Assembly: GCA_045590955.1 (NCBI GenBank)
Contig: JAZNSB010000059.1
Span: 2,760 to 66,759, forward strand
Reading direction: 5' to 3'
DNA from: Alphaproteobacteria bacterium
GTDB lineage: Bacteria > Pseudomonadota > Alphaproteobacteria > RF32 > CAG-239
DNA: 64,000 bases
Positions 33,379-64,000 of the stretch are shown here, one piece after another. The position numbers and the translations under genes are program-made. Position 1 is the stretch's first letter, and every line of letters starts with the position of its first letter. The notes beneath the pieces were generated by a model. It was not told the origin of the DNA and searched no databases. It saw only the letters and a list, made by a program, of their open reading frames with translations.

Positions 33379-33726
33379 TTAAATCTGTTTTTTTTCTGCA
33401 TCTATCAATATAGCCGTCAAAAACATGATAATTGTTGCTATGGCAAAACCACCACAAAACAACAAAAATGCTCCGTCGTCTTCAACTTCTCTGGGCACAC
33501 TTGTATATATAAAGGCCACACAGGTTCCAAACATTACCGGCATAGAAGTTATGCTCAACACCCTTGGTCTGATAAACCAAACCAACAGCTGCAAAATCAA
33601 ACCGGCCAGTGCAATAAGACAGATAGCCTGCCAGTCAATAGGCCAAAAAAAGCATACGCACAGCGCCCAAAAAAATGTTGCAAAAGAGGGCATAAGCAAC
33701 GCAGATAAATTTTTTTTAAGTTTCAT
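33379..33726 (-). CDS. Hypothetical small membrane protein (3-4 TM)
   Basis: A hydrophobic ORF followed by the terminator aagagaggt-tctgac-acctctctt. Confidence 0.3.
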   Translation of the reverse strand: MKLKKNLSALLMPSFATFFWALCVCFFWPIDWQAICLIALAGLILQLLVWFIRPRVLSITSMPVMFGTCVAFIYTSVPREVEDDGAFLLFCGGFAIATIIMFLTAILIDAEKKQI

Positions 33727-33860
33727 AACCTCATAATTTTTAGTGACACATTCTTAAAACAATGAATACAGATTTACATTTATTTATTAAAAAAGCAACA
33801 GTTTTTTTTGACTCCTAAAACAAAAACATATAAGCTATTGAACAAAAAAGAGGCTTAAAA

Positions 33861-34799
33861 ATGACAGAAACAAAAAAAGCAAGTAAAAACCGCACAATCA
33901 TTTTATCAAAAATTCAAGAAAAGATGCTGTCACCTGATTTACTCAGTCTGTCTAAACCGGCAACCGTTGCCCAACTCACAAATGCCACAATTAATCAAGA
34001 TTTAATGGACTGTCTTGATAAATTACCCAAAAAATTTATAGATTTGTTGTTTATTGACCCTCCATACAATCTAAACAAATCTTTTAACCAGCTAAAATTT
34101 AAAAAAACAGATGATGAGCACTATCAATCTTGGTTTGAAAGTTGGTTTGAAAAACTTATCCCATGCTTAAAACCAACCGCCTCAGTATATGTTTGTTGCG
34201 ACTGGGTTTCAAGCCCCGCCATATATAATGTTTTAAAAAAACACTTAATTATCAGAAATCGCATTACCTGGGAAAGAGAAAAAGGCAGAGGTGCAAAAAA
34301 CAACTGGAAAAACTGCTCAGAAGACATTTGGTTTGCCACAATGTCAGATGATTATTACTTTAACTGTGATGCCGTAAAACTCAAAAAAAGAGTTCTTGCC
34401 CCATATAAAGATAAATCCGGTCAACCAAAAGACTGGCAAGAAAGTGATAATGGAAAATATCGCTTAACACACCCGTCAAACCTGTGGAATGACATCTCTA
34501 TCCCTTTTTGGTCAATGCCTGAAAACACAGATCATCCCACTCAAAAGCCTGAAAAACTTGTTGCAAAAATCATTTTAGCATCAAGCAAAGAAAAAGACTT
34601 TGTCTTTGACCCGTTTTTGGGCTCGGGCACAACCTCTGTTGTTGCAAAAAAATTAAATCGCAAATTCTGTGGTATTGAGCAAGACAAACACTTTGCCCTC
34701 ACTGCCCTTCGCAGATTGCAAATGGCAGAAGAGAACAAAGAAATACAAGGCTATCATGAAGGCCTGTTTTGGGAACGCAATTCACATCCCAAAAAGTAA
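33861..34799 (+). CDS. Beta-class N6-adenine/N4-cytosine DNA methyltransferase, CcrM/M.HinfI-like, orphan
   Basis: FIDLLFIDPPYNL (motif IV), HPTQKPEKLV and DPFLGSGTTSVVAKKLNRKFCGIE (motif I) align closely with Caulobacter CcrM (…DPPYNL…AHPTQKPEALL…[24 protein letters not shown]). CcrM's C-terminal 80-aa extension is absent. No restriction gene is adjacent. Confidence 0.75.
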   Translation: MTETKKASKNRTIILSKIQEKMLSPDLLSLSKPATVAQLTNATINQDLMDCLDKLPKKFIDLLFIDPPYNLNKSFNQLKFKKTDDEHYQSWFESWFEKLIPCLKPTASVYVCCDWVSSPAIYNVLKKHLIIRNRITWEREKGRGAKNNWKNCSEDIWFATMSDDYYFNCDAVKLKKRVLAPYKDKSGQPKDWQESDNGKYRLTHPSNLWNDISIPFWSMPENTDHPTQKPEKLVAKIILASSKEKDFVFDPFLGSGTTSVVAKKLNRKFCGIEQDKHFALTALRRLQMAEENKEIQGYHEGLFWERNSHPKK

Positions 34800-36563
34800 T
34801 TAATCTTTTGCTACAATGCAAATTCCCAACTCTTTAAGTTGCTCCGGCGTAACATTGCTTGGAGCTTGCATCATCAAATCTTGTGCTTTACCATTTAACG
34901 GGAAAGCAATCACATCACGAATAATTGGCTCATCCAAAAGCAACATGATAATTCTATCAACACCAAAAGCAGAACCGGCGTGAGGAGGTGCACCAAACTT
35001 AAACGCATTTATCATACCCCCAAATTTCTCATCCACAACAGAATTTGCATATCCGGCAATTTCAAATGCCTTATACATAATTTGCGGATTATGGTTTCTA
35101 ACTGCACCGGACAAAATTTCAGCGCCGTTACAAACCAAATCATATTGATATGCCAATATATCTAACGGATTTTTGTTAAGTAGAGCATCCATTTCGCCCT
35201 GAGGCATAGAAAACGGATTATGAGAAAATTCCACTTTTCCGGTTTCCTCATTTTCTTCATACATCGGAAAATCCACAATCCATGCAAACTTAACGGCATT
35301 TTTATCTGTCAGGTTCAAATCATTTGCCAATTTTTCACGCAATTTTCCTGCAAACTTAGGCAATGTTTTTGTATTGCCCGTCACAAAGAAAACAGCTCCG
35401 TTATCAGGCACATTAAGTTCTTGTTTAATCTGATTTTGTTTCTCAGGTGTCAACACTCGGGCCAATCCCTTATTTCCTTCTTGCAAATAAGAAACATACG
35501 CCACACCGCCAAAACCGTTTTCTTTTCCAAAGGCATCTATTTTATCAAAGAAAGATCTGGGGTTTGTTGCCACATCTTTTACCACAATGGCTCTTACAAT
35601 GTTTCCTTCCTTAACTTTTTCATCATATACAGAAAAACCGCTGTCCCCAAACAAGTGAGTTGCTTCTTGTATTTCAAGCGGATTTCTCAAATCAGGCTTA
35701 TCTGTTCCATATTTAAGCATAGAAAGGTTATATGGAATATGAACGAACGGTTTTGCATCTACTGTTTTTTGCGGATTAAATTCCACAAAGATAGTGTGCA
35801 ATACATTTTCAATTACGGCAAAAACGTCTTCTTGAGTTGCAAAACTCATTTCCATATCCATCTGATAAAATTCTCCGGGAGACCTGTCTGCTCTTGGATC
35901 CTCGTCTCTAAAACACGGAGCAATTTGAAAATATCTGTCAAAACCAGACACCATCAACAGCTGTTTAAATTGTTGCGGAGCTTGTGGTAAAGCAAAAAAT
36001 TTACCGGGATTTAGTCTTGACGGCACCAAAAAATCTCTTGCACCTTCAGGAGAAGAAGAAGTTAAAATCGGAGTTTGAAATTCATTAAAACCGCTTTCAA
36101 ACATTAACTCTCTAATTCTTTTTATTACCTTTGAGCGCAAAATTATATTGTTATGGATTCTTTCTTTTCTCAAATCTAAAAAACGATATTTCAAACGAAT
36201 ATCTTCCGGAGCATCATCTTCCACTGCAATTTGAAATGGAATAATCTCAGATGTTGAATAAACTTTCAAAGAATTTACTTTAATTTCAATATCTCCTGTC
36301 GGCATATTTTTATTTATACTTTCTCTTTTAATAACTTCTCCTTCAATACCAATCACAGATTCTGCTCTTAATGCATCAATTTGATTAAACAAATCTGAAG
36401 AAGAATCAAACACACATTGTGTAATGCCGTAATGGTCTCGCAAATCCACAAAGCACAAATTACCCAAATTTCTTTTGCGATGTATCCAACCTGCCAGTTT
36501 TACTGTTTTTTGCACATCAGCCAGTCTTAACTCGCCACATGTATGAGAACGATATTGATGCAT
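34800..36563 (-). CDS. aspS: Aspartyl-tRNA synthetase
   Basis: A 587-aa class II aaRS with the anticodon-binding OB domain plus motifs (FRDEDPRADRSPGEFYQMDMEMSF; GGAPPHAGSAFGVDRIIMLL). Confidence 0.95.
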   Translation of the reverse strand: MHQYRSHTCGELRLADVQKTVKLAGWIHRKRNLGNLCFVDLRDHYGITQCVFDSSSDLFNQIDALRAESVIGIEGEVIKRESINKNMPTGDIEIKVNSLKVYSTSEIIPFQIAVEDDAPEDIRLKYRFLDLRKERIHNNIILRSKVIKRIRELMFESGFNEFQTPILTSSSPEGARDFLVPSRLNPGKFFALPQAPQQFKQLLMVSGFDRYFQIAPCFRDEDPRADRSPGEFYQMDMEMSFATQEDVFAVIENVLHTIFVEFNPQKTVDAKPFVHIPYNLSMLKYGTDKPDLRNPLEIQEATHLFGDSGFSVYDEKVKEGNIVRAIVVKDVATNPRSFFDKIDAFGKENGFGGVAYVSYLQEGNKGLARVLTPEKQNQIKQELNVPDNGAVFFVTGNTKTLPKFAGKLREKLANDLNLTDKNAVKFAWIVDFPMYEENEETGKVEFSHNPFSMPQGEMDALLNKNPLDILAYQYDLVCNGAEILSGAVRNHNPQIMYKAFEIAGYANSVVDEKFGGMINAFKFGAPPHAGSAFGVDRIIMLLLDEPIIRDVIAFPLNGKAQDLMMQAPSNVTPEQLKELGICIVAKD

Positions 36564-36632
36564 AATTTTTTCCTTCTTTTAAGTTTTATTACAGATTGTT
36601 TTATTCTTTTAAAACAATAAATTCAAGTAAAT

Positions 36633-37514
36633 TTACATATTTCTTTGAATAATAAAGTCTGCCAGTTCTTTTAAGATTGTTGCTTTTTCTCCAAACATAT
36701 CCAAAGATTGTTTTGCCTGCTCAGTCAAATCTTGTTCCATTTGCTTTGCCTTTTCCAAACCATAAAGCGTTACAAATGTCACTTTTCCTTGTTCTTTGTC
36801 TTTTCTCAAAGTTTTGCCCACAAGCTTTGCATCTCCCTGATAATCTAAAATATCGTCAGATATCTGAAATGTCATTCCAATGTTGGTTGCATACTTAAGC
36901 AAAGCTTGTGTTTCTTCAGCACTTGCATTTCCCAAAACAGCACCGGCTTCAATTGCATATTTAAGCAATCTTCCCGTTTTCATTTTTTCAATTCTGGCAA
37001 TCAAATTTTCATCTTTTTGCGGATTTTTTTCTGCATACAAATCAAGCATCTGTCCGGCAACCATTCCGTCATAAGCACCGGCGGCATTTGCCAACAATTT
37101 AACCAGTTTACACTTTTTCTCATCAGATAGTTTTGCATCTGCAATAACCTCAAAAGCCTTTGTCAACAATCCGTCTCCGGCAATAATAGCCGTTGCTTCA
37201 TCAAATTGTTTATGGCAAGTTGGCTTTCCGCGTCTGAAATCATCATTATCCATTGCCGGCAAATCATCATGAATTAAAGAATATGTATGCAACATTTCCA
37301 AAGATACCCCCACATCAATGGCATCTTCAAAACTCAGTCCGAACATTTTGGCACAATTATACACCAAAAACGGTCTCAATCTTTTTCCACCGGCTTTTAC
37401 GGAATATTCCATTGCTTCAATCACTCTTTTTTCTGCTCCATCCGGCTTTGCAAAAAAACGGTCCAACTGAGCATTAAACTGCTCAGAAAAATTTTCAATT
37501 TCAGTCAAAATCAT
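36633..37514 (-). CDS. ispA: Farnesyl/geranyl diphosphate synthase (polyprenyl synthetase)
   Basis: The first DDxxD motif (LIHDDLPAMDNDDFRRGKPT) and the second (FQISDDILD) are both present. Confidence 0.85.
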   Translation of the reverse strand: MILTEIENFSEQFNAQLDRFFAKPDGAEKRVIEAMEYSVKAGGKRLRPFLVYNCAKMFGLSFEDAIDVGVSLEMLHTYSLIHDDLPAMDNDDFRRGKPTCHKQFDEATAIIAGDGLLTKAFEVIADAKLSDEKKCKLVKLLANAAGAYDGMVAGQMLDLYAEKNPQKDENLIARIEKMKTGRLLKYAIEAGAVLGNASAEETQALLKYATNIGMTFQISDDILDYQGDAKLVGKTLRKDKEQGKVTFVTLYGLEKAKQMEQDLTEQAKQSLDMFGEKATILKELADFIIQRNM

Positions 37515-37747
37515 TCTTCGTCACTTTCAAATTTTGTTAAAGATACACTTCCGTCTTCATTCATGCATATTTTTTCAATTTTAAGCTCAGCTTCTTTAAG
37601 TTTTTGTTCACAAAACTTTTTCAATTTCATTGCTTTTTCATAAGATACTGCAGCATCTTCAAGCTTCACCTTACCGCTTTCCAGCTCTTTTACAATTTGT
37701 TCCAAATCGCCAAGGGCTGTTTCAAAAGTTAAATTTTCTTCAGACAT
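37511..37747 (-). CDS. xseB: Exodeoxyribonuclease VII small subunit
   Basis: LTFETALGDLEQIVKELESGKVKLEDAAVSYEKAMKLKKFCEQKL is the canonical XseB, and it overlaps the ispA start as in many bacteria. Confidence 0.85.
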   Translation of the reverse strand: MSEENLTFETALGDLEQIVKELESGKVKLEDAAVSYEKAMKLKKFCEQKLKEAELKIEKICMNEDGSVSLTKFESDEE

Positions 37748-37870
37748 ATTCTCTCCCGAATTTTTTTGATTATTATTTTCATATCATATTAAAGTTTATA
37801 TATCAATTAGCTTTATAACACATTTTAACAACTTAAATAACGATTACATTCTTTGCCAAGGAGATTTATC

Positions 37871-38134
37871 ATGAACACAGAACAACTAGCACGTATATTA
37901 CAACTTTTATCCAACCCTAAAAGACTTCAAATTCTTTTTTTACTAAAAGAAAAAGAACAAAATGTAAAATCCATTGAAGAACAAATAGACTTATCTCAGT
38001 CAGCTTTATCGCAACACTTGGCTTTATTAAGAAAATTTGACATTGTCCAGACAAAAAGAGTTGCCCAAAACATTTTTTATTCTATAAAAGACCAAAAAGT
38101 ATTGTCTATATTGGAGTTACTCAGCAAATTATAA
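37871..38134 (+). CDS. ArsR/SmtB-family transcriptional regulator
   Basis: MNTEQLARILQLLSNPKRLQILFLL...LSQSALSQHLALLRKFDIV. There is an aaggag RBS 7 nt upstream of this ATG. Confidence 0.7.
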   Translation: MNTEQLARILQLLSNPKRLQILFLLKEKEQNVKSIEEQIDLSQSALSQHLALLRKFDIVQTKRVAQNIFYSIKDQKVLSILELLSKL

Positions 38135-39310
38135 AGTTGTGATTTTCACATTTTTTCTTTTTGCATCAAAACCAAAAGCAATTTTTCCGTCTCTTAAAAG
38201 CAGAGCATCCTTACCAAACACATCAAATCTCCATCCGCTTAAAAGAGGATTTTGTTTATCATCAAAAGATGCCAAGCGCTTTAAATCATCTTCCGTTGCA
38301 ATCAGTCTTGCCACAATACCAGTTTCCAAACTTTTTAATTTGAGCAAAAGCTTCATCAATTCCAACAAACCCGGACAATAATTTCCGCCCCCCTCTGTTT
38401 CCAACTTAACATAGTCTTTAGCAGATAGTTTCTTAAAGTTTTCAACCACCTGCAAAATTTCAACAGCCAATTTTCCTTCCACAATATCTTTACGCATGTT
38501 TCTAATGTTTGCCAACTGTTCATGAGTGGTAGGGCATTCAGAAGCAATGTTCAGCAAACATTCATCTTTTACAATGTTTTGTCTTGGCAAATTTTTTCGT
38601 TTTGCTCTTTCTTCTCGCCAAGCTGCTAATTCTCTCAGCAGAGTCAAAAATCTTACATTATGAGATCTGTGCTTAATTTTTTTCCATGCATCTTTTGGAT
38701 CTGTTTCATATGTATTTTCATCAGATAAAATTTTTAATTCTTCAAAACAACACTCTTCATGTTTGTTGTGCTCTAATTTTTTCTTCAGAAACAAGTAAAT
38801 GTCTTTCAAATAAGTCACATCACAAATTGCATAATTAAGCTGTTTTTCATCAAGCGGGCGTTTACTCCAATTTGTAAGCCTGCAAGTCTTATCTAATTCT
38901 GCCTTACAAACAAACCTTACCAAATTTTCATAACTGATAGATTCTCCAAAACCGCAAGCCATCGCCGCTACTTGAGTATCAAATATATTTTGAGGTATTT
39001 TTCCGCTTATATTATATAAAATTTCAATGTCTTGTCTTCCCGAATGAAAAACCTTAACCACATTTTGGTTTTGCATCAAATCAAAAAAACTCTGCAAATT
39101 AATATCTTCTGCCAAAGGGTCTATTATCACATCATTTTTTTCAGAGCCCACCTGAATAAGGCACAATTTTGCATAATATGTTTTTTCTCTCAAAAACTCT
39201 AAATCAACGGTTATAAATTTATCATTTTCCAAAGATTTACAAAAATCATTAAGTTCTGCTGTTGTAGTAATAAGTTTCATTTTTCCATCCGGTATATTAA
39301 CTTTTTGCAT
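38129..39310 (-). CDS. rnd: Ribonuclease D
   Basis: The DEDDy 3'-5' exonuclease motifs (FITVDLEF..., ...HSGRQDIEIL, YAICDVTYL) are followed by an HRDC-like region. Confidence 0.8.
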   Translation of the reverse strand: MQKVNIPDGKMKLITTTAELNDFCKSLENDKFITVDLEFLREKTYYAKLCLIQVGSEKNDVIIDPLAEDINLQSFFDLMQNQNVVKVFHSGRQDIEILYNISGKIPQNIFDTQVAAMACGFGESISYENLVRFVCKAELDKTCRLTNWSKRPLDEKQLNYAICDVTYLKDIYLFLKKKLEHNKHEECCFEELKILSDENTYETDPKDAWKKIKHRSHNVRFLTLLRELAAWREERAKRKNLPRQNIVKDECLLNIASECPTTHEQLANIRNMRKDIVEGKLAVEILQVVENFKKLSAKDYVKLETEGGGNYCPGLLELMKLLLKLKSLETGIVARLIATEDDLKRLASFDDKQNPLLSGWRFDVFGKDALLLRDGKIAFGFDAKRKNVKITTL

Positions 39311-39396
39311 TATATAACCACATATCCTATTTTCAAGAATTTTCTCACAAAAAAAGGCGGTAAAAAACCGCCTTTCTTTTTTACAATTGCAAAGAG

Positions 39397-49273: not shown

Positions 49274-51688
49274 TTGTTCAAAAAGGCCGGACATATTTTT
49301 GTTTTTTTTGTCGGAATGTATCTGACACTTTTGCTTGCTAGCACAAACTCTCAAGCATCAACGGGCTCTAGTGTAACATTAAGTTTTCCGTGGAACAACC
49401 AAGTAAGTTCTGCCGTATTTTTTAGAGAAGGTTATTTATGGATTGTTTTTGACCGCAAACATGAATTTGATCTGCAGGAACTTGCCAGAACTTCTAAAGA
49501 ATATATAAAAGAAATTGTATCTCTCCCCCATCCAAAAGCCACAATCTTGCGTTTGTTGCCCACAGACAAAATCTTTGTTGCCGTAAGAAAAGAAGGTTTG
49601 CTTTGGATTGTTGATATTTTTGACAAAGAAAGAGAGCCTTTAAGAAGTGCCACAAAAATCCTTACCGAATTTGACGGTCTTCAACATTCTTACCTGTTTA
49701 TTCCATCTGCCACATCAGGAAATGCCATCTCCATCATAGACCCATTGGTTGGAGATACACTGCTCATTATCCCTTCTGCAGATTATTCTTTAAATCTGCC
49801 CACAAATTATTCTTACCCTGATTTAGAATTTTTGCAATCTGTTCAAGGTATTGCCATTGTCCCCAACACAGATGATTTATATTTAAATAAAACCACAGAG
49901 GGAATATCTATCAAAGCACAAAAGCGCAGTTTACACATTTCAAACAACCTTGAATATCTTAAAAAAGAACAACTTTTTTCTACAGCTGCAACAGAAGATA
50001 AAGACCTTCTTTTACCCCATGTTGATATGAACAAACATAACTTTATTGCCTCAGAACATAAGCTTATCACAGATTTGTCTCTTGCATCTGCAAACAACAA
50101 ACAATCTGCCCGTACAGAACTTGCCAAATTTTATATCGGACACGGACTTGGAACAAACGCTCTTGGTTTGTTGGCGCAAAATTACAAAGCAAACCCTAAT
50201 CAAAACAAACAATTTTACTTTTTAAGAGGACTTGCAAACTTTTTGACCAAAAGATATCAAGAAGCATCTGCAGATTTTTCAAACAAATTACTTGAAGGAG
50301 ATGAAAACGCCATATTCTGGCAAACAATCACTCAGTCTCAAACACAAATAAAACCACAAGATAATGCAATTACTTCTGCATATATTTATCTTTTGAGCAA
50401 TTACCCCGAAGATTTAAAAGAAAGAGCCTCTCTTGCCGGAGCACACATAGCTATTTCTGCAGAAGACGACGTAACAGCTCATAAGTTTTTAGACATATTA
50501 AAAAATGCAAATGTCAATCGCTTAAGAAAAGCCCACATAAAATACATCACTGGCAAAATATTTTTACTCCAGGGATACCCTCAAAATGCTTTAAGAGAAT
50601 TTACAGACATTGCACGCTCAGATTCACAAAAATGGGCATCTTTTTCCAGAAAAGAAATTGCCAATTTGGCACATGCTTTCAACTTTATCAGCATATCAGA
50701 TGCCACACAAGAACTTGAAAAAATATACTTTGCTTGGCACACCCAAAGCTTTAGAGAACAAGTTTTGCATGATTTGATTTATCTTTATTCAGAAAATCAA
50801 GATTACCACAGAGCTATAGAAAGAGAATATGAACTATATAAAATGCAAACAGATGAAGTAAAAAAAGCCCAAACCAAACAACAAATGATAACAACAATAG
50901 AAAACCTGTTTTTAGAAGACGTAAACATCAAAATTTCTGCCTTCAAGATTTTGGCTTTATATGACTCTTTTAATTGGATTGCTGTGCAAAGCCCAAAATA
51001 CAACAGCATTGTCAGAAAACTTGTAGATAGACTTGTTGCCGTAGATTTGTTGGAAAGAGCAAAAGAATTAATCAAAACTCAACTGGCAGACAAAAAAACT
51101 CCGAATACAGAAAAACAAAAATTGATAGCCCGACTTGCTCTCATATATCTTTTTGAAAATGCCCCTACACAAGCATTAAAAGTAATTCAAGACAACAAAC
51201 ATTTAAATGCAGACAAACAAATGACAGAGCAAATTCAGGTCATTAAAGCCAGAGCATATATAGACATCAACAGACCTGATTTGGCTTTAAAAACTCTTGA
51301 AAAAGAAAACACCAAGAATGCTATATTATTAAAAACAGATTTATATATGAAAGCCCAAAAATGGGAACAAGCCGCAGACAGTATCAAACAACTCATAGAA
51401 CCGGCTGTTGCAGGCAAGCCTCTTTCTGATGAACAAGCAGAATATATTTTAGACTGGGCATTGGCTTTGAAAAAAGCTGGCAAAGAAACTGTTTTGGTCA
51501 GACTAAGAAACAGCTTCTTACCCCAATTTGAAAAAACCAAGTATTACAGCCCGTTTTCTTTATTAACCAGCCACTTGGATTCTAATAAAATAGATTTAAA
51601 TAAAATAGAAAAAACCATAGATGATACCAAATTATTCAGCAATTTTGTAAAAAGTTACAACAAATCTTTGCAAGAAATAGGACAATAA
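49274..51688 (+). CDS. Large periplasmic TPR-like repeat protein in the flagellar locus (TTG start)
   Basis: An 804-aa protein with a signal peptide (…[12 protein letters not shown]) and a helical-repeat-rich body. It is co-directional with and adjacent to motE. Confidence 0.45.
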
Positions 51689-51698
51689 GAATAATAAA

Positions 51699-53684
51699 AT
51701 GGCATCAAACATATTTCACATAAACAGCAGTTTTGAACCTTCCGGAGACCAACCGCAAGCCATAAAAGAACTAACAGACGGATTAAAAAACGGACAACAA
51801 AATCAAATTTTGCTCGGAGTAACAGGTTCCGGCAAAACTTTTACCATGGCAAAAATCATTGAACAAAGCAAACGCCCTGCCCTCATTATGGCTCCCAACA
51901 AAATTTTGGCAGCCCAATTATACTCTGAGATGAAAGATTTTTTTCCCAACAATAATGTAGAATACTTTGTATCATATTATGACTATTACCAACCCGAAGC
52001 ATATATTCCCAAAACAGATACATATATTGAAAAAGATTCTTCCATAAATGAACAAATTGATATGATGCGTCACGGAGCAACCAGAAACGTATTAGAAAAC
52101 AGAGATGTAATTATTGTTGCATCTGTATCTTGTATATATGGATTGGGTAGCATGGAATCATATTCATCCATGTGTTTTGAAATAAAAACCGGAGACAACA
52201 TTGAGCCTTCCGCTCTTTTCCGCAACCTCTGCCAACTTCAATATGAACGCAATCAAACAGACTTCAAACGCTCTACTTTCAGAGCCAATGGAGACATAGT
52301 TGATATTTTTCCTGCACACTATGAAGACAGAGCTTGGAGATTATCCTTTTTTGGAGATGAAGTAGAAGAAATATATGAAATAGACGCCCTAACAGGCAAA
52401 AAAACCGCAAAACTGGATTCTGTGGTTGTATATCCTGCCAGCCATTATGTAACGCCAAGACCTGCATTATCGCAAGCAATTACAGAAATTAAAAAAGAAC
52501 TCAAAACACAAATAGAAACATTTAAAAATCAAGGCAAACTTCTAGAGGCCCAAAGATTGGAACAACGCACAAAATTTGATCTTGAAATGCTTGAAACAAC
52601 AGGACACTGCAAAGGGATTGAAAATTATTCCAGATTTTTAACCGGAAGAAACCCCGGCGAACCTCCGCCCACACTGTTTGAATATCTTCCCAAAGATTGC
52701 ATAATTTTCATAGATGAAAGTCACATTAGTGTTCCTCAAATCGGAGCCATGTTTAAGGGAGACCAAAGTCGCAAACAAACTCTGTCAGAATTTGGATTTC
52801 GCCTTCCTTCTTGCAAAGACAACCGTCCTCTTAAATTTGAAGAATGGAATAAAATGCGTGGACAGACCATCTTTGTTTCTGCCACTCCCGGAGACTGGGA
52901 ACTTGAACAAACGCAAGGTGTTTTTACTGAACAGCTTATTCGTCCCACCGGACTTACCGACCCTGTTTGCATTGTCAGACCGGTAGAAAATCAAATAGAC
53001 GACTTGATGAAAGAATGCAAAATCAGAGCACAAAAGAATCAATGAGTTTTGGTTACAACCTTAACCAAAAGAATGGCAGAAAAACTCACCGATTATTTAA
53101 GAGAAAATAACATTAGGGTTAAATATCTGCACTCTGATATTGAAACACTTGAAAGAATTGAAATCATCAGAGACTTAAGACTTGGCAATTTTGATGTTCT
53201 TGTCGGCATTAACCTGCTCAGAGAAGGTTTAGACATACCTGAATGTTCTTTGGTTGCCATTTTAGATGCAGATAAAGAAGGTTTTTTGCGTTCATATCGC
53301 TCATTAATCCAAACCATTGGCAGAGCCGCCAGAAACTCAGAAGGACAAGTCATTTTGTATGCAGACAAGATGACAGGCTCCATCCAAACCGCATTAGAAG
53401 AAACCAATCGTAGAAGAACCAAACAACTGGCATATAATACCGCCCACAACATTACCCCGGCCACCATTAACAAACAAATTTCTCCAACATTGTTTAAAAT
53501 GATAAATGCAGATTATGTTGAAAAAGAACAAATTTCTCTCAACAAAGACGGCAACATAGAAAAACAAATTAAAGAACTTACAAAAAAGATGAAACAAGCA
53601 GCAGAAAATCTTAACTTTGAAGATGCCGTTAAATATCGTGATCAAATCAAAAAATTAGAAAAAGACTTTTTACAAAAAGTGTAG
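51699..53684 (+). pseudogene. uvrB: uvrB (excinuclease ABC subunit B) interrupted by a single in-frame TGA at 53043..53045; both halves are otherwise intact
   Basis: The N-terminal part (51699..53045) carries Walker A ([10 protein letters not shown]). The C-terminal part (53049..53684) carries helicase motifs V/VI and the UVR domain. They are in the same frame and read ...[15 protein letters not shown], against the conserved ...[15 protein letters not shown]. This fits CGA changed to TGA. Confidence 0.7.
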
Positions 53685-53693
53685 GAAAAACTT

Positions 53694-54134
53694 ATGAAAA
53701 TAACCATCAAAGCAATAGGAAAATGTAAAAAAGGCTCACCGGAAGCAGAACTGATTAATGAATATATCAAGCGTAGCAAATGGGATATTTGCATTAAAGA
53801 AGCAGATAACTCTACCCAAGAAAAAGAAGCTTCATTTTTAACCTCCGGCTTACCTGCAAACGCAAAAATTGTGGTCTTAGATGAAAGAGGAATAAACATA
53901 AAATCCATAGAACTCGCACAAACTGTTGAAAATTGGCAAAATAACGGTTGCAATGAAATATGTTTTCTTATCGGGGGAGCAGACGGTCACCTTGAAAGCA
54001 CTCGCCAAAAAGCAGATTTAATTTTATCATTCGGTCGCCTGACATTGCCACATATGTTAATGAGAGCCGTTTTAACAGAACAAATATATCGCATCCAAAC
54101 CATTTTGTCCGGACACCCATACCACAGAGAATAA
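53694..54134 (+). CDS. rlmH: 23S rRNA (pseudouridine1915-N3)-methyltransferase RlmH
   Basis: A SPOUT fold with the typical length and the ...GHPYHRE C-terminus. Confidence 0.85.
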   Translation: MKITIKAIGKCKKGSPEAELINEYIKRSKWDICIKEADNSTQEKEASFLTSGLPANAKIVVLDERGINIKSIELAQTVENWQNNGCNEICFLIGGADGHLESTRQKADLILSFGRLTLPHMLMRAVLTEQIYRIQTILSGHPYHRE

Positions 54135-54210
54135 AAACAAGTTAATTTTAAAAAAAATAGGGCCAAAATAAGTTAGCCCTATAATTATCATTGCCTATAG
54201 TTAAAAATCA

Positions 54211-54561
54211 TCAATTTTTACGCACGTTTGCCACGGCACTCCACATTTTTTCTATATTATAAAACTCTCTTACTTCAGCTCTAAAGATATGAACAATTAC
54301 ATCATAGGCATCAATAAGCACCCAATCTGCCTTGTCCTGACCTTCCACCACAGATTTAAAACCGTTATCTTTTAAGGCCTGATACACATATTCTGCCACT
54401 GCCGCCACGTGTCTTTGAGAATTTCCGGTTGCCACCACCATATGGTCGGCAATGCTGGTTTTTCCTTGCAAATCCATATGCACAATGTTTTCTGCTTTAT
54501 TATCTTCCAAAGTTTTAAGCACTATCTGTAAAATATCTTTTTTTTGTTTTTTCATTTTCAC
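54211..54561 (-). CDS. rsfS: Ribosomal silencing factor RsfS (Iojap)
   Basis: DHMVVATGNSQRHVAAVAE...WVLIDAYDVIVHIF. Confidence 0.85.
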   Translation of the reverse strand: MKMKKQKKDILQIVLKTLEDNKAENIVHMDLQGKTSIADHMVVATGNSQRHVAAVAEYVYQALKDNGFKSVVEGQDKADWVLIDAYDVIVHIFRAEVREFYNIEKMWSAVANVRKN

Positions 54562-54563
54562 CT

Positions 54564-55655
<1,092 letters not shown>

Positions 55656-55680
55656 TTAATAACACTCTCCAACCAAAAGT

Positions 55681-55935
55681 TTATTCTGTAACCACAGAAA
55701 CATAAACTTTATCGTCGGCTTTTGTGGCAAATTCCACTTTTCCTTCAGCCACAGCAAAGATTGTATGGTCTTTACCCATATCAACATTTTTGCCCGGATG
55801 ATATTTGGTGCCTCTTTGACGAATAATGATATTACCAGGAATAACTTTTTCTCCGCCAAATTTTTTCACACCTAAGCGACGACCTTCCGAGTCTCTACCG
55901 TTACTGGAGCTACCGCCTGATTTCTTATGTGCCAT
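55681..55935 (-). CDS. rpmA: 50S ribosomal protein L27
   Basis: [29 protein letters not shown]... is canonical. Confidence 0.95.
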
Positions 55936-55949
55936 ATCTAAATCTCCTC

Positions 55950-56273
55950 TTATTTACCTTCAGCAGGCTTTGCAGCACCGCCCAAAATATCTGTAATTTT
56001 AACGATTGTAATGTTTTGGCGATGACCATTTTTACGACGATAATTTTGTCTTCTTTTCTTTTTGAAAACAATTACCTTTGCATCTTTTGCCTGTTTTACA
56101 ACCAAAGCCTTAACGCTGGCTTCTTTTACTAACGGTGTTCCGATTTTATCGCCCAAAGCCAAAACTTCGTTAAATACAACCTCAGAACCCTCTTCGGCCT
56201 TAATTTTTTCAATTTTCAGCACGTCGCCGGAATTAACTTTATATTGTTTTCCGCCTGTTTTTATTATTGCATA
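55950..56273 (-). CDS. rplU: 50S ribosomal protein L21
   Basis: [25 protein letters not shown]... is canonical. The start is taken at MYAII. Confidence 0.9.
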
Positions 56274-56349
56274 CATTTTTTCTTCCATTCATAAATATCA
56301 AACTTTTTTATGCAATATACATAAGATTTTCTTACTGTCAACATAAAAT

Positions 56350-56817
56350 TTATTGTTTCTTTACAAATACTCTGTATAAGGATGGATTCATAAACTTTGT
56401 CTTCCATATTCCTTTTTTATTTTTCATAGCCTGTTTTTGTTGCAAAGCATATTCATCACCATATTGCGCATAAGACAAGGCATAACCTTCTGCCACCATT
56501 TGCTCTGCCAAATCTTTGCCGTTGCAATAACATGTTGCCAACCATCTGTTATATTTGTCTTTGCCTTCTTTTTTGCACTCAATTTTTCCTTTTATCAAAG
56601 ATTGTAAAAACTTTTTTGACTGTTTTCCGCATTTAATTTCTTTTTTACCTTCATAACAAATTTGCATATATTCCGGAGCATCAATTCCTTTTAACCTGAC
56701 ATTTTCTCCATTTATCAAAATACTGTCTCCATCCAATACGTTAATTTGTCCATTTGCCGTGGCAAAATTACAAATAACAAGTAACAGCAGTAAAAGCAAT
56801 ACAGATTTTATATTCAT
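56350..56817 (-). CDS. Secreted thermonuclease-like (SNase fold) nuclease
   Basis: A signal peptide, then VLDGDSILINGENVRLKGIDAPE ... DKYNRWLATCYCNGKDLAEQMVAEGYALSY parallels the staphylococcal nuclease motifs (DGDT..RL.GIDAPE ... DRYGR.LA.V ... G.A). Confidence 0.65.
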   Translation of the reverse strand: MNIKSVLLLLLLLVICNFATANGQINVLDGDSILINGENVRLKGIDAPEYMQICYEGKKEIKCGKQSKKFLQSLIKGKIECKKEGKDKYNRWLATCYCNGKDLAEQMVAEGYALSYAQYGDEYALQQKQAMKNKKGIWKTKFMNPSLYRVFVKKQ

Positions 56818-56937
56818 AACACCTCTCAATGTTCACTATATCTGCAAATTTATGTTTTTTGCAAGAATATATTGTAAAAGTAATAAAAATACTTTGTAAT
56901 TCTATTTATTTGACGTAATATAAGATAAATTTTTATT

Positions 56938-57783
56938 GTGAGGTTTGAAGTGTTTAAAAAATTTTTACTTATATCTTTGTTGTTTTTAAGTTCTTGCGCC
57001 ATTTCACAACGCAGTTTCAAAGAAATTATTAACGACCCGTTTAACCTTAAGGCAGAGGGCAAGAATGCAACAAACGCCCCTTTAACATTAGAAAACAGCG
57101 TTGTAATCTGTCGTTCAAAACAATGTGCGCCGGCAAAACTTTCTATGTCAAAAGAATATATTTATAATTCTTTATTGCAACTTTTTGACAACAACGACAA
57201 CAGCAGAGCGCTTGTTTGCCAGTCAAACCCGGCAAGCAAATCTTGCTTAGAGACATATATCACACTACCGATAACTGTGGGCATTACCCCGGCATATATG
57301 TATATTGATTATGTAAAAATTTCAGACGTTTCATTTACGGAAGATACTTCACAAATAACCGCTTTATTAAATTACCACGTTACATATAACGGTCAAACAC
57401 CGGTATGCAACCCATCAAAAACCATTATCTTTGCAAAAAATGCTGAACACGTATTGTTGGAAGATTCCGGTTATTCTTGCAAGATGACAACTGTTGGAAA
57501 AACATCTGTAAAAACAGTTTTTGCCATTGATTACATAGACTTAGATTATGGTTTTATCGGCGGATATTATTCAATAGGTCTTTCCGGTCCGGCATATGGT
57601 GGAGGCACCGGTTACATGTTGCTTAAATTACAAAAAAATGCATATCCTTTATCTCCGGCTCTGCAAACACCAAAAAATTCTCAAAATAAAGATATTGCCA
57701 GAGAACAGAATATAAACAGAACCTCAAATAGCCAATCAACCGCAGGAGTTGACGGGGTTCAGATATTCCCGATAAACAAATAG
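56938..57783 (+). CDS. Hypothetical lipoprotein (GTG start; lipobox LSSC)
   Basis: FKKFLLISLLFLSSC. No recognisable domain. A terminator follows at 57805..57838. Confidence 0.4.
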   Translation: MRFEVFKKFLLISLLFLSSCAISQRSFKEIINDPFNLKAEGKNATNAPLTLENSVVICRSKQCAPAKLSMSKEYIYNSLLQLFDNNDNSRALVCQSNPASKSCLETYITLPITVGITPAYMYIDYVKISDVSFTEDTSQITALLNYHVTYNGQTPVCNPSKTIIFAKNAEHVLLEDSGYSCKMTTVGKTSVKTVFAIDYIDLDYGFIGGYYSIGLSGPAYGGGTGYMLLKLQKNAYPLSPALQTPKNSQNKDIAREQNINRTSNSQSTAGVDGVQIFPINK

Positions 57784-57804
57784 CAAACACACTTTTTAAT
57801 AAAA

Positions 57805-57838
57805 AAGCACCCCGACCGGAGTGCTTTTTTTTGTTTTT
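57805..57838. terminator. Bidirectional rho-independent terminator
   Basis: aagcac-cccgaccgga-gtgctt followed by ttttttttg. Confidence 0.6.
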
Positions 57839-57847
57839 TAAAGACAG

Positions 57848-59014
57848 TTATCTGCCGTCATCTCTGCCTGTCGGCATATTTTGACGAGTATTTACATGTT
57901 GTTTTTCTTGGGCTTTTTGTTCTTTTTTAATTTCTTTTTCTCGTTTTCTTGCCGCAATTTTTGTTCTTAAAGCCGCAATTGCAGCCAAAGGCCTTGCATA
58001 GGCAATATCTTCGGCAGAACGTCTTACCAATGACAAATTATCTTCGTTCATAGCTTCAGATTTAATGCTTTCTCTCATTAACTTTAATGCCTTTTTGGCC
58101 AATTTACGATCCGCCTTGCCAATGTCTTCAAGGCAGTGTGTTATTGCATATACCTCATGTTCGTTAGGTTTATCATGTGTTCTAAGATAATATTCCACAT
58201 GCTTAAATGCTGTTTCGGCAAATTTCGGATCTTTTCTTGAAATTTCTCCCATAAGATAGAAATCTGAGGTGTTTAAGCCACCACGAACCAGCTCATAACG
58301 TGCCGCAATTCTTTCAACACGTTCCGGTTCAGCAGCTCCACTTGCAATCAATCTAGTATAAGCACGCTGGGCAGCATTTTTTACATCTTCCCTATGAGTT
58401 GAGGTTTCATAGCGTTCAATTATATTAAAACACCTTTCTACATCATAAGGTTTTAGGTCTTCACTAAATTGTACCAATGTAGAAATGACTCTAGGCGTTA
58501 GTTCTTCTTCATAATGACGATCCATTGAACAGATACTACCAATCGGATCTCTCAAAGCACCAGGAAATTTTTTTGCAATGGTTACAATATCGGACAAAAC
58601 ACGCTTACGATCCACTTCTCCAACTTTTGCACTAGAGGCCGTTATAGAAATAGCAGTTTCTAATAAATTTCCTAGCTCTGGGTTTTTTTCTAAATCTTTA
58701 CCCCACCAATCAGTACTTTTTAAATCAGACACAATATGTATCCCCGCCTCAGGAATTTCCAATAATATGTCGGTACAAAATTCGCGGTTTTCAGAATTAT
58801 ACATCGCACGAAGCATCTTAGCTATGCCTGATGATGGAACCTCTTTTGAAGTTTTAGATATTTCTCGTATAGTTTTTAAAATCTCCGCAGCAAGCTCCGG
58901 ATTTTTATCAACCTTCTGACCGACCTTCTCCCAATCATGGTAAGGATAACAAGGTTCTTCTTTTATCCGCTTCATCATAGAATCAAATTCTTTTCTATCT
59001 TCCTCAGTAACCAT
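57848..59014 (-). CDS. Hypothetical all-helical protein (388 aa, Arg/Glu-rich, no signal peptide); monocistronic and terminator-flanked
   Basis: A clean ORF with somewhat higher GC than its neighbours and terminators on both sides. Confidence 0.4.
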   Translation of the reverse strand: MVTEEDRKEFDSMMKRIKEEPCYPYHDWEKVGQKVDKNPELAAEILKTIREISKTSKEVPSSGIAKMLRAMYNSENREFCTDILLEIPEAGIHIVSDLKSTDWWGKDLEKNPELGNLLETAISITASSAKVGEVDRKRVLSDIVTIAKKFPGALRDPIGSICSMDRHYEEELTPRVISTLVQFSEDLKPYDVERCFNIIERYETSTHREDVKNAAQRAYTRLIASGAAEPERVERIAARYELVRGGLNTSDFYLMGEISRKDPKFAETAFKHVEYYLRTHDKPNEHEVYAITHCLEDIGKADRKLAKKALKLMRESIKSEAMNEDNLSLVRRSAEDIAYARPLAAIAALRTKIAARKREKEIKKEQKAQEKQHVNTRQNMPTGRDDGR

Positions 59015-59230
59015 AACACACCTCCTATATACTGTAAAAAACCGAACATTTTTTTACAATGTTTTAAGGAATCATGAGATAAACTGGCTTAACATCAGGA
59101 AGTCCTTGTTTTTATTTTGTTATTGCATATTAGACAAAAATATGGCATAATAAATATAGGCATTGGATTTAAATGTTCCTTTTTTTACAATGACATAAAT
59201 CTCAATTTTTCAGACTGTTTACACTAAAAA

Positions 59231-59257
59231 AAAAGACGATTAAAATCGTCTTTTGTC
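59231..59257. terminator. Hairpin terminator after holC
   Basis: agacgatt-aa-aatcgtct with A/T runs on both sides. Confidence 0.5.
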
Positions 59258-59707
59258 TTATTGTTTTTGTTCCCATTTACCAACGCTGTTTTGTTGCCAA
59301 TAATTAAGCTCTGCATCTTGTTCTTTTAAGCGTTTCCATAAATCTCTGGCATATTCAAGAGATTCCTTATTGTTTCCGTCAAAAATACAAAAAACTCTCT
59401 CAAAAACCTCATCAGATTTATAATCTGCACAATCCACCAAAAACAAATAGCTTGCTCCGTTTGGATTATCATCTTCACATGTAAGCCAAATAGGTTGCTT
59501 ATCTGCCTGACCATATTTTTTGCATGAATGAGGCAGAAAACTATCTTCTTTATACGTCCAAAGCAAGTTATTTAATAATTCCACCCTCTCCTCATTTCCA
59601 ATGCGGACCAATATATTTTTTTGTGATGCATATGCTTTTTCCAGCAATTTTGGAAGCACATTTTCCAAGGTATCATGTTGCAAATGATAAAAATCAATTC
59701 TGTTCAT
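59258..59707 (-). CDS. holC: DNA polymerase III chi subunit
   Basis: MNRIDFYHLQHDTLENVLPKLLEKAYASQKNILVR... is the alphaproteobacterial HolC pattern. Confidence 0.7.
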   Translation of the reverse strand: MNRIDFYHLQHDTLENVLPKLLEKAYASQKNILVRIGNEERVELLNNLLWTYKEDSFLPHSCKKYGQADKQPIWLTCEDDNPNGASYLFLVDCADYKSDEVFERVFCIFDGNNKESLEYARDLWKRLKEQDAELNYWQQNSVGKWEQKQ

Positions 59708-60941
59708 TTATCAACTCCATTTTAACCATATGCATTTCTTCATCACGGTCTATTTCCATTTCCATCGGACGCATCATATCTGCTTTTGCATATACCACCA
59801 TATCTTCCACATCTTTAATGCTTATAATGGTTCTGCCATCAATTTTGGCAATCCTATCTCCTTCTTTTAATCCGTGTTTAGCCGCCAAACCGTCATGTTT
59901 TACTTTTGCCACAACAACATTAAAAGTCTCATTTTTCAGCCACAATCCCAAATCATAAATCTCAAACAAATTTTCTTCTTTTTCTTTTGCCAACGTTACT
60001 TGTTCTTGAGGCTGTTCTTCAATTATTATATTTTTGATGATTTGCTGATTATTTCTTTGCAAAACAATCTCCACATTTTCTCCAACTTTGGTCTGAGCAA
60101 TTTCTCTGGACAGGTTCTTAATGTTTTTCACGTCTTTGCCGTTAAATTTAACAATTTTATCACCCACTTCCAAACCTTGTTTCATTGCCGGACCACCATT
60201 TTTCAAAGAAGATATTATTCCGGCTCCGTCTTCAGATTGTAGCATTGCACCAATATAACCTCTTTTTACCTCTCCGGTCTGTTTTAACTGATTTACCACC
60301 CACATTACCTGATTAATTGGGCTTGCAAAACCAATCCCTTGTGACAAACCGGTATCAGAGAATATGGCAGAATTTACACCTATTACTTCTCCTTGCAAAT
60401 TAAACATAGGACCGCCGGAATTTCCCTGATTTATTGAGGCATCTGTTTGCAAAAAATTATCATACGGACCCACTTCAATATCTCTTGATTTTGCAGAAAT
60501 AATACCGGCAGTCAAACTACCTCCTAAACCAAACGGATTTCCAATGGCCAAAATCCAATCCCCAACTCTTACTTTGTCAGAATCTCCTATCACTACAGGG
60601 CTTAACTTTATATCCGGATTAATTTTGAGCAATGCCACATCAGATTTTTTATCCACGCCTACCACATTTGCATCATATTCATCATCATTAGCCAATACCA
60701 CATTAATTTTTGTGGCTTTTTCAATAACATGCAAATTGGTAACAATATATCCGTCTTCTGAAATAATAAATCCCGAACCCAAAGACTGATGTTCAACATC
60801 TTCATCTGTTTCTTGAACGGTAGACACATTAACCACACAATCAAAAAGCTTTTCTGCCACATCTGCAAAACTGATTGGCACTTGAGCATTGACAGGCAAG
60901 GCAACAAACATCAGACTTAAAGTTAAGACAAGTTTCTTCAT
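59694..60941 (-). CDS. degP: Periplasmic serine endoprotease DegP/HtrA (trypsin domain + PDZ)
   Basis: DVALLKINPD (Asp) and GNSGGPMFNLQGEVIGVNSAI (Ser) form the catalytic triad context. PDZ domains lie C-terminal. Confidence 0.85.
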   Translation of the reverse strand: MKKLVLTLSLMFVALPVNAQVPISFADVAEKLFDCVVNVSTVQETDEDVEHQSLGSGFIISEDGYIVTNLHVIEKATKINVVLANDDEYDANVVGVDKKSDVALLKINPDIKLSPVVIGDSDKVRVGDWILAIGNPFGLGGSLTAGIISAKSRDIEVGPYDNFLQTDASINQGNSGGPMFNLQGEVIGVNSAIFSDTGLSQGIGFASPINQVMWVVNQLKQTGEVKRGYIGAMLQSEDGAGIISSLKNGGPAMKQGLEVGDKIVKFNGKDVKNIKNLSREIAQTKVGENVEIVLQRNNQQIIKNIIIEEQPQEQVTLAKEKEENLFEIYDLGLWLKNETFNVVVAKVKHDGLAAKHGLKEGDRIAKIDGRTIISIKDVEDMVVYAKADMMRPMEMEIDRDEEMHMVKMELINEQN

Positions 60942-61810
60942 TATTTTTTATGTCCTTGCTCATTTTGTAAGAATTTGAAAAATTCAGAATTTGGAGAAAT
61001 CAACAATTTTGTCCCATCTTGCAAAGACTTTTTATATGCCTCCAAAGATCTATAAAAATCATAAAACTTTGTATCCAAAGCTGCGGCCTCGTTCCATAAG
61101 TCAATAACTTCTTTATCTCCTTGACCTTTTATGATTTCTGCCTCTTTTTGAGCCTCTGCAATTATAAACACTTTTTCTTTTTCTGCAGTTGCTCTAATTT
61201 GCTGTGCAGCTTGCTGACCTTTTGCTCTAAATTCTTTTGCGTCTCTTTCTCTCTCTGCTTTCATTCTGGCATTTATTGCTTGCAAAACTTCCACCGGCAA
61301 ATCGGCCCTTCTAATTCTTACATCTGCCACACTCACACCAATTTGCTGAGCATCATTTTTTACTGCAGCACTGATATCTGCCATTATCTGAGTTCTTTGG
61401 CTTGACAACAACTCAGGCAAAGTAATTTTTCCCAACACTTTTCTAATAGAAGAATTAACAATTTCTTCTAATTTTGAATTTGCCTGATATTCTGTTCTTA
61501 CTGTTTTATAAAACTTTAGAGGATCAACAATTTTATATCTTGTAAAGCTGTCCACATCTAAACGTTTTTTATCGTTGAGCACAATTTCTTGCGCCGGAGG
61601 ATCTAAATTTAACAATCTGTTGTCATAATATACCACATTTTGTATAAACGGCACCTTAAATTTCAATCCGGCATCTTTTATCTCTCTGACAGGCTCACCA
61701 AATTGCAACACAATCGCCTGTTCTGTCTGATTAACCACATACACACTGGCAATCAAAGATATGATCATTAAAAATATAAAAATTAATGCATATTTTTTCT
61801 TAGTTTCCAT
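60941..61810 (-). CDS. hflC: HflC (SPFH/band-7 protease modulator)
   Basis: An N-terminal TM plus an SPFH domain (NQTEQAIVLQFGEPVREIKDAGLKFKVPF). It sits downstream of hflK. The start is taken at METKKK. Confidence 0.85.
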   Translation of the reverse strand: METKKKYALIFIFLMIISLIASVYVVNQTEQAIVLQFGEPVREIKDAGLKFKVPFIQNVVYYDNRLLNLDPPAQEIVLNDKKRLDVDSFTRYKIVDPLKFYKTVRTEYQANSKLEEIVNSSIRKVLGKITLPELLSSQRTQIMADISAAVKNDAQQIGVSVADVRIRRADLPVEVLQAINARMKAERERDAKEFRAKGQQAAQQIRATAEKEKVFIIAEAQKEAEIIKGQGDKEVIDLWNEAAALDTKFYDFYRSLEAYKKSLQDGTKLLISPNSEFFKFLQNEQGHKK

Positions 61811-62936
61811 GGTTTTCTCCTTTAGCAAGCAATGTTGTCGGCAGCGAAATTTCTTTTCTGTCGCCTGTATTTTTATCTGCCACATTCATATTTACCTGTT
61901 TCATTGCAGCATTATTCAATATCTTTTTTATCGGATTTTTATTGTCATTTAACTGCAACAAAGGTAGCACATTAGTGTTTTTGTTATCAAAAATAACCTT
62001 ATCCACTTTTCCTAGCACATCTTCCATTGCTTCTATATACATTCTTTTTCTGGTCACTTCTTTTCCATTTTTATAAGAATTATAGATGGCTTTATATCTT
62101 TGAGTTTCACCCAGCGCCTTTTGAACCACTCCTTGCTTATAAGCTTCAGCGTTTTGAATTCTTTGTACGGCTTCTCCTTTTGCTTTTGGCAAAATTTCAT
62201 TTCTATATGCCTCTGCCTCATTTTTAAATCTTTCCATATCGGCTCTTGCTCTCTGCACTTCATTAAAAGCATCAACCACTTGCTTTGGCGGGTCTGCTTT
62301 TTGTAATTTCACTCTCACAATTTGCACACCTGCTCCAAACTCATCCAAAACATTTTGCAGTTCTTCTTTAGTTTCATCTTCCACTTTTCCTCTGTCGCCG
62401 GTAATTATCGGTTGCATTTCAGATTGACCGATAATTTCTCTTAACACAGATTGAGCAGCAACACGCACGGTATTGTCCACATCTGTCATATTAAACAAAT
62501 AATCTTTTGCACTTTTAACTTTCCAAACAATTGTCAAATTTATATCAACAATGTTTTCGTCTCCTGTTAACATATGACTTTCTGTAAAAGCTGTTCTGCT
62601 GTTTGGCTCAATTCCCAAATTAATACTTCTTTCTTGGGTTGTATTTACCTTTTTTACTTCTTCAATGGGATAAGGCAAATGATAATGTAATCCGGCATCT
62701 GTTGTCTGAACATATTTTCCAAATCTTAAAACCACACCTTGCTGATTGGGGTTTACCTGATAAAAGCCGGAAGCACCCCACAAAATCAACAATCCTGCAA
62801 TTATATATTTAAAAGGCATATTAAAATCATTTCCTTTTTTAAAGCGCAAATCAATCACCTTAATTTCTCTGTCATTTTCCGGCCACGGATTATCTTGTCC
62901 GGCTTGTTCCCAAGGATTTATAGTTTTTTTGTTCAT
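61800..62936 (-). CDS. hflK: HflK (SPFH/band-7 protease modulator)
   Basis: VNPNQQGVVLRFGKYVQTTDAGLHYHLPYPIEEV plus the long charged C-terminal region. Confidence 0.85.
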   Translation of the reverse strand: MNKKTINPWEQAGQDNPWPENDREIKVIDLRFKKGNDFNMPFKYIIAGLLILWGASGFYQVNPNQQGVVLRFGKYVQTTDAGLHYHLPYPIEEVKKVNTTQERSINLGIEPNSRTAFTESHMLTGDENIVDINLTIVWKVKSAKDYLFNMTDVDNTVRVAAQSVLREIIGQSEMQPIITGDRGKVEDETKEELQNVLDEFGAGVQIVRVKLQKADPPKQVVDAFNEVQRARADMERFKNEAEAYRNEILPKAKGEAVQRIQNAEAYKQGVVQKALGETQRYKAIYNSYKNGKEVTRKRMYIEAMEDVLGKVDKVIFDNKNTNVLPLLQLNDNKNPIKKILNNAAMKQVNMNVADKNTGDRKEISLPTTLLAKGENHGN

Positions 62937-63025
62937 CTGCTTTATCTCCTGTTGATTTATAATTCTATATAATATAAATAATAAACAAAGACAATTATCA
63001 AAAATGATATCAACAGGATAAAAAC

Positions 63026-64000
63026 ATGATTGAACAAATAAGAAAAATTGTAAATTCTTACTTTACACAAGAAGAAATAGATTCATTAAATCTGTTTAAT
63101 AATAAGATTATTTTAACATTAAAAAACACTAACAAAGATTTTGACGCACTTAAAGCAGAACTTGAAAAACTGCCTAACATAAACTCGGTATCAATCATAT
63201 ATACCGGCACAAAAGATGTTTCTTCGTTCAATCAACCGCAAAAAAAAGAACTGTTACCAACAGTAAAAAATGTAATTTTGGTATCTTCAGGCAAAGGCGG
63301 AGTTGGCAAATCCACCACATCTGTAAACCTTGCCTTGGCATTAAAAAACCTTGGTTTAAAAGTTGCTCTTTTTGATGCTGACATATATGGTCCTTCTATT
63401 CCCAAAATGCTCGGATATGAAGGATTAACCCCCATAAGTTACGACGGAATAAGCTTTGAACCGTTTGAAAAATATGACATAAAATCAATGTCAATCGGCA
63501 CACTGTTAGACAATAACAGCGCCCTGATTTGGAGAGGTCCGAAGGCCTGCTCTGCTTTGGAACAATTGCTTGGTCAAACCTCCTGGGGACCAACAGACGT
63601 AATGGTAATAGACACACCTCCCGGCACCGGAGATATCCAAATTTTCTTAAGTCAAAATCTTAACATTACCGGCGCTGTAATTGTTTCAACTCCGCAAGAT
63701 GTTGCTCTTATAGATGCCATAAAAGGAGTAAATATGTATAAAAGTGTAAACATTCCGATTCTCGGCATTGTTCAAAACATGAGTTACTTTTTGTGTGACA
63801 AGTGCCAACACAAAGCATACATATTTGGACAAGACGGAGCAAAAGACACAGCTGAACAATTATCTGTTCCATTTTTGGGAGAGATTCCTTTGAGCATTGA
63901 TTTACGCATTGCTTCTGATGAAGGCCTCCCCATTATAGAACATAACATTACAAGCCCCATTTCAGAGGCATACATAAACATTGCAAAACAAATTAAACCG
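63026..64000 (+). CDS. mrp: Fe-S cluster carrier ATPase Mrp/ApbC, partial; the 3' end lies beyond the window
   Basis: An N-terminal DUF59-like region, then VILVSSGKGGVGKSTTSVNLALAL (deviant Walker A) and the CxxC-containing FLCDKCQHKAYIFG. Confidence 0.8.
   Translation, partial: MIEQIRKIVNSYFTQEEIDSLNLFNNKIILTLKNTNKDFDALKAELEKLPNINSVSIIYTGTKDVSSFNQPQKKELLPTVKNVILVSSGKGGVGKSTTSVNLALALKNLGLKVALFDADIYGPSIPKMLGYEGLTPISYDGISFEPFEKYDIKSMSIGTLLDNNSALIWRGPKACSALEQLLGQTSWGPTDVMVIDTPPGTGDIQIFLSQNLNITGAVIVSTPQDVALIDAIKGVNMYKSVNIPILGIVQNMSYFLCDKCQHKAYIFGQDGAKDTAEQLSVPFLGEIPLSIDLRIASDEGLPIIEHNITSPISEAYINIAKQIKP

Follow-up and report, generated by a model that had tools for sequence, protein, structure and literature searches.

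The locus analyzed here raises the question of whether a uvrB gene interrupted by one in-frame TGA has been inactivated by mutation, reflects an error in the sequence, still yields a working protein, or is read with a different genetic code. In the window (the whole stretch of DNA that was analyzed, 64,000 nucleotides, hereafter 64 kb), uvrB occupies positions 51699..53684 of the + strand. In a mechanical ORF list, one reading frame holds both ORFs of the gene, 51699..53045 (448 aa, ATG start) and 53049..53684 (211 aa, TTG start), and the codons around the stop read AAT CAA TGA GTT TTG GTT ACA ACC. The preliminary description of this DNA, which had reported a uvrB split by one in-frame TGA into two ORFs of the same frame, was accurate to the base. 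Both pieces matched the NCBIfam UvrB equivalog NF003673 (653 positions) over the ranges given in Table 1, with 731.6 bits (E = 7.7e-220) for the upstream and 313.8 bits (E = 2.2e-93) for the downstream piece; together the scores amounted to approximately 1045 bits, against a whole-protein cut-off of 743. As the match of the two pieces was collinear and contained no indel, only one codon of uvrB is affected. The locus shares with ordinary UvrB (NF003673/TIGR00631; structures such as 9gy7, 2d7d and 1d9z) a full-length profile match (2-652 of 653) and all near-invariant residues, and the upstream piece can be aligned to solved UvrB structures (e.g., 9gy7_E). It differs in that a stop stands for the invariant Arg before VLVTTLTK, so that the frame of approximately 660 aa, uninterrupted in 79 aligned relatives, is discontinuous here. 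In kind, this is an ordinary nonsense-interrupted gene, of a type already known.

Table 1. Features of the interrupted uvrB gene (positions refer to the 64-kb window).
Feature	Position	Strand	Description
uvrB upstream piece	51699..53042	+	448 codons; N-terminal helicase core, UvrA-binding region and beta-hairpin, by homology to solved UvrB structures; NF003673 positions 2-443
In-frame TGA	53043..53045	+	In place of the invariant Arg directly before the VLVTTLTK(K/R)MAE helicase motif
uvrB downstream piece	53046..53684	+	212 codons plus TAG stop (53682..53684); second helicase domain and C-terminal UvrC-binding region; NF003673 positions 446-652
TTG, first in-frame potential restart codon past the stop	53049..53051	+	Listed only as the start of a mechanical ORF call

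The identity of the residue replaced by the stop was assessed on 80 loci encoding relatives of UvrB, taken from one-genome-per-species bacterial contigs. In all 75 loci where the motif [VI]L[VI]TTLTK could be located, the preceding codon encoded Arg (AGA in 23, CGC in 20, CGG in 12, CGT in 11, CGA in 6 and AGG in 3) and none carried a stop at that codon; in the 25 relatives listed, a single codon separates the two abutting parts of uvrB. The same residue occupied the column of the stop in 79 of 79 homologues aligned with MAFFT, as well as in 164 of 164 further database proteins, in full agreement with the earlier statement that the stop replaces a conserved Arg. The accompanying proposal, that CGA had changed to TGA, held in part. 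TGA is one substitution away from both CGA (C to T) and AGA (A to T), and L062, the closest relative covering the site, carries CGA at the homologous codon, which makes this a possible route. On the other hand, AGA is the dominant Arg codon of the window (362 AGA vs. 23 CGA among 586 Arg codons; 21 vs. 0 in uvrB itself), so that the route from CGA is no more likely than that from AGA, and a transversion of AGA to TGA is at least as plausible. The ancestral codon was accordingly rated to be AGA just as likely as CGA.

Neither half of the gene showed signs of decay. Near-invariant columns, defined as those conserved in at least 97% of the 79 homologues, were kept at 138 of 138 positions upstream of the stop and at 75 of 75 downstream (213 of 213), the stop itself being the sole violation, and the family-invariant residues of the helicase motifs, the beta-hairpin and the C-terminal UvrC-binding region were all present. 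The conserved motifs are hence intact on both sides of the TGA, as had been noted before. Divergence told the same story: the ratio of downstream to upstream (C/N) divergence between this uvrB and its relatives was 1.17 (range 1.04-1.34), compared with a background of 1.10 ± 0.14 among other UvrBs separated by comparable distances (393 pairs), and the downstream piece consequently displayed no excess divergence. At near-invariant codons, 0 changes were counted in approximately 173 nonsynonymous sites downstream and approximately 494 in the whole gene, which under a simple Poisson bound limits neutral divergence since the appearance of the stop to less than 0.017 (downstream) or less than 0.006 (whole gene) substitutions per site (95%). 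Because neither half has decayed, the stop is either very recent or artefactual; the option of a very recent nonsense mutation, one of those first put forward, was upheld in this form. In terms of age, the lesion is no older than within-species variation, or else not real.

The most probable explanation is that one base was substituted (AGA or CGA to TGA) and that the codon for Arg449 thereby became a stop in an otherwise normal uvrB. A real and an erroneous T at 53043 predict an identical picture at the sequence level. A sequencing, assembly or consensus artefact, in which the true base at 53043 would be A or C and uvrB would be intact, was considered possible, if somewhat unlikely; this reading also covers a metagenome-assembled consensus that picked a minority or chimeric allele. 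It would explain why the gene is flawless but for one base, with every near-invariant column kept and no excess divergence, and it agrees with the fact that every relative is intact with Arg at the site. The intact uvrB of all relatives, which indicates selection for the gene in the clade, likewise counts against a real mutation. In addition, the lineage is known from this sequence alone. Among 5.8 billion protein clusters no UvrB more than 80% identical was found, the closest sharing 76-80% identity, in searches with both the joined protein and the N-terminal piece; the latter was searched alone as well because truncated, nearly identical products would fall below the bit-score cut of the joined search. 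No 448-aa product was detected in either search, exact-product look-ups returned no record of the 448-aa uvrB piece or of the neighbouring RlmH, and metagenome contigs did not contain the DNA around the site when it was used as an exact pattern in which 53043 was set to N. Since public records include neither the exact product of the N-terminal piece nor that of rlmH, nothing else has been sampled from this lineage.

Against an artefact stands the quality of the window, which displays no other defect along its 64 kb: none of its approximately 60 genes is frameshifted or split, and approximately 91% of it is coding. Real nonsense polymorphisms occur in most bacterial genomes, while stop-creating substitution errors are rare in polished assemblies. 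The state of the window points to an assembly of good quality, where a substitution error would a priori be expected less often than a genuine nonsense polymorphism. A real mutation was weighted above an error only because the rest of the window is devoid of signs of error and because bacterial genomes commonly carry nonsense polymorphisms; that the T at 53043 is real is in this sense inferred rather than measured.

If the substitution is real, the interrupted gene might still be functional, either through basal read-through of UGA, in which a near-cognate tRNA would yield full-length protein at a level of a few per cent, or through re-initiation at TTG 53049, giving a non-covalent two-piece UvrB; we regard this as improbable. 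UGA is the leakiest of the bacterial stop codons. In E. coli K-12 reporters, UGA is read through at approximately 2-4% via Trp-tRNA-Trp (PMC10570021). In the gene analyzed here, an in-frame TTG lies one codon past the stop and nothing in the downstream piece is damaged, features that would favor residual function. Read-through by tRNA-Trp, however, would insert Trp where all 243 homologues have Arg, making useful UvrB activity doubtful; read-through by a tRNA-Arg, with a G:U mismatch at the first position, would conceivably restore the wild-type residue. No stimulatory RNA structure was detected downstream of the stop, the segment 53025..53125 folding no more stably than its shuffled versions (z = -0.95). 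As for re-initiation, anti-Shine-Dalgarno pairing averaged -5.0 kcal/mol in front of the genes of the window and -0.76 kcal/mol at random positions, and no Shine-Dalgarno sequence preceded the candidate restarts, with values of -0.9 kcal/mol for TTG 53049 and +2.0 kcal/mol for ATG 53073. The position of the break was equally unfavorable to a two-piece protein. In the alignment to solved UvrB structures, and with the domain limits of the literature, it would lie immediately ahead of the first beta-strand of the second helicase domain; the predicted first helix of that domain, which precedes the strand, would stay with the upstream piece, and a clean domain boundary would thus be missed.

The wider distribution of the stop also argued against residual function: besides its absence from all relatives, a pattern degenerate at the codon level (TGA, then codons for V/I-L-V/I-T-T-L-T-K-K/R-M-A-E) gave 0 matches to other uvrB genes among 241 million metagenome records. 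In control searches, the TGA form of this pattern matched the window once and the Arg form recovered 63 of the 80 relatives. Programmed read-through, as one form of the stop-codon read-through suggested earlier, was disfavoured on these grounds (no downstream structure, no Rfam match, a stop conserved in no relative). An evolved split gene was rejected, the missing Shine-Dalgarno sequence and the lack of metagenome matches counting against it. That the TGA is both real and tolerated, with enough UvrB supplied by low-level UGA read-through or as two pieces via TTG 53049, was deemed highly improbable; if true, uvrB would be a natural case of a helicase gene that is leaky or split.

The use of TGA across the window bears on the remaining explanation. 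TGA ends RuvC (Pfam profile 1-148 of 148), YebC, RsfS, XseB and DegP (NCBIfam, to 432 of 434) at the ends of their profiles, two of these stops overlapping the start of the following gene as ATGA. Among the 61 ORFs of the gene map with 100 aa or more, 7 have TGA as their stop, including the upstream piece of uvrB. Internal TGA, TAA or TAG codons were absent from the 15,248 codons of 40 other genes of the window, in which Trp was encoded by TGG 135 times. The only tRNAs in the window are tRNA-Gln(CTG) and tRNA-Thr(TGT), with neither a UCA-anticodon nor a suppressor tRNA within the 64 kb, and no Rfam family was matched apart from these two. The locus resembles UGA-sense codes (UGA as Trp in table 4 and as Gly in table 25) and selenocysteine insertion in that the reading frame of a conserved gene contains a UGA. 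Unlike them, TGA acts in this window as a terminator, and its in-frame occurrence is a single one, at an Arg position and with no SECIS-like structure. A UGA-reassigned code (table 4 or table 25) was discarded given the absence of internal TGA codons and the five genes terminated by it, and a selenoprotein given the fold of 53025..53125, the lack of an Rfam match and the Arg of the 243 homologues. That TGA encodes an amino acid here (Trp, Gly, Sec or even Arg), which would leave uvrB a normal gene, is scarcely credible: the sole point in favour is that the gene around the stop is without fault, against at least five conserved genes terminated by TGA exactly at their profile ends, the absence of internal TGA codons with TGG used for Trp, the lack of a UCA-anticodon tRNA in the window and of structured RNA after the codon, and a homologous residue that is Arg and never Cys, Sec, Trp or Gly. 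Recoding is effectively refuted for the window. The preliminary description had considered an alternative code unlikely because no other long gene showed an in-frame TGA; both statements were confirmed for the window, and none of the conserved in-frame TGA codons in other genes that it had named as a sign of recoding was found.

The same description had presented incipient loss of repair as typical of reductive evolution, which the composition of the window did not bear out; apart from this framing and the CGA origin, the options that it listed held up in the main. With approximately 35% G+C, the window contains no other split, frameshifted or disrupted gene, nor did any other pair of adjacent ORFs match one family, and ligA, ruvA, ruvB, ruvC, xseB, holC, rnd, aspS, the flagellar cluster and other housekeeping genes are intact. 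Such compactness, together with the intact genes, speaks against a pseudogene-rich reductive genome and against an error-prone assembly. A precedent for the loss of NER genes is Orientia tsutsugamushi, a host-restricted alphaproteobacterium in which uvrB, uvrC and mfd have been deleted (PMC2575882; NER, nucleotide excision repair). The present case is similar in that an NER gene is inactivated in an alphaproteobacterium of low G+C content. In contrast to Orientia, uvrB is here neither deleted nor eroded: it bears one lesion in a compact 64 kb where the other repair genes are intact, so genome-wide reductive evolution is not evident. A search of the literature on uvrB nonsense pseudogenes returned only general cases of presence or deletion of NER genes in reduced genomes, and the locus was described in none of the papers found. 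The closest UvrB proteins (74-80% identical) come from uncultured gut and rumen Alphaproteobacteria, with source labels that in some cases read 'Azospirillum sp. 47_25' or 'Alphaproteobacteria bacterium'. The gene starts 10 bp past a gene for an 804-aa protein and ends 9 bp before rlmH, an arrangement partly common to the closest relatives.

Other features of the window were recorded alongside uvrB. Directly upstream of it, the segment 46529..51688 (+) carries a flagellar run consisting of fliL, fliM, a DUF6468 protein, an FlbB-like collar protein and the 804-aa protein; the last gave only faint TPR/SctY-like matches, and its gene was also found in front of uvrB in relatives L003, L007 and L008, with approximately 38% identity. 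The largest gene of the window that could not be annotated is an ORF of 991 aa (42680..45655, -), with no NCBIfam or Pfam match at the thresholds used and flanked on the same strand by ORFs of 245 and 242 aa. Three further ORFs of 313-388 aa had no Pfam match (57848..59014, -; 24546..25706, -; 14681..15622, +), two of them ending in TGA. An 879-aa protein (26621..29260, +) resembles the thiol:disulfide reductase DsbD in its C-terminal half (profile 165-546 of 574), its approximately 460 N-terminal residues having no family match. The segment 10733..12892 (+) was considered as a candidate split gene and rejected: ruvA, ruvB and the gene of a 4HBT thioesterase (ybgC-like) are complete separate genes, consecutive in one frame with a stop plus one codon between each. 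A second in-frame stop was observed within one or two codons of a genuine TGA in 14681..15622 (TGA GAT TAA), 37511..37747 (TGA TTT TGA) and 54211..54561 (TGA TGA); such tandem stops may hint at a somewhat leaky TGA in this organism, in a sample far too small to judge. GC skew was negative in nearly every 2-kb bin of 1..64000 (cumulative -4.8), with genes on both strands, which fits a position of the whole window on a single replichore, the + strand being the lagging-strand template.

Returning to the single-base substitution as the preferred explanation, its consequences would follow from the position of the stop. If the T at 53043 is real, translation would end after residue 448, and the truncated protein would still comprise the N-terminal ATPase/helicase half with the UvrA-binding region and the beta-hairpin but would lack the second RecA-like helicase domain (from the VLVTTLTK motif onward) and the C-terminal UvrC-binding domain. 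Given the established UvrABC mechanism, on which this prediction is based, such a protein would be expected neither to hydrolyse ATP productively nor to recruit UvrC, and could not support incision. We infer that UvrB function would be lost if the base is real, and, with both of these domains missing, established knowledge of UvrABC would predict that NER is lost or nearly lost in the strain or population. The genes uvrA, uvrC and mfd were not found within the 64-kb window. Under the same condition, uvrB would be a nascent pseudogene, extremely young and at the level of a within-species polymorphism rather than in a long-standing state.

The stop in uvrB has no bearing on the evolution of the genetic code, on recoding or on new protein architecture, and if the base is an error, a correction of the assembly would be the only consequence. 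If it is real, this strain or population of an otherwise unsampled gut-type alphaproteobacterium would have just lost NER; uvrB would then have to be flagged as a pseudogene and NER regarded as doubtful in this organism, and the locus would provide one data point on the onset of repair-gene loss.
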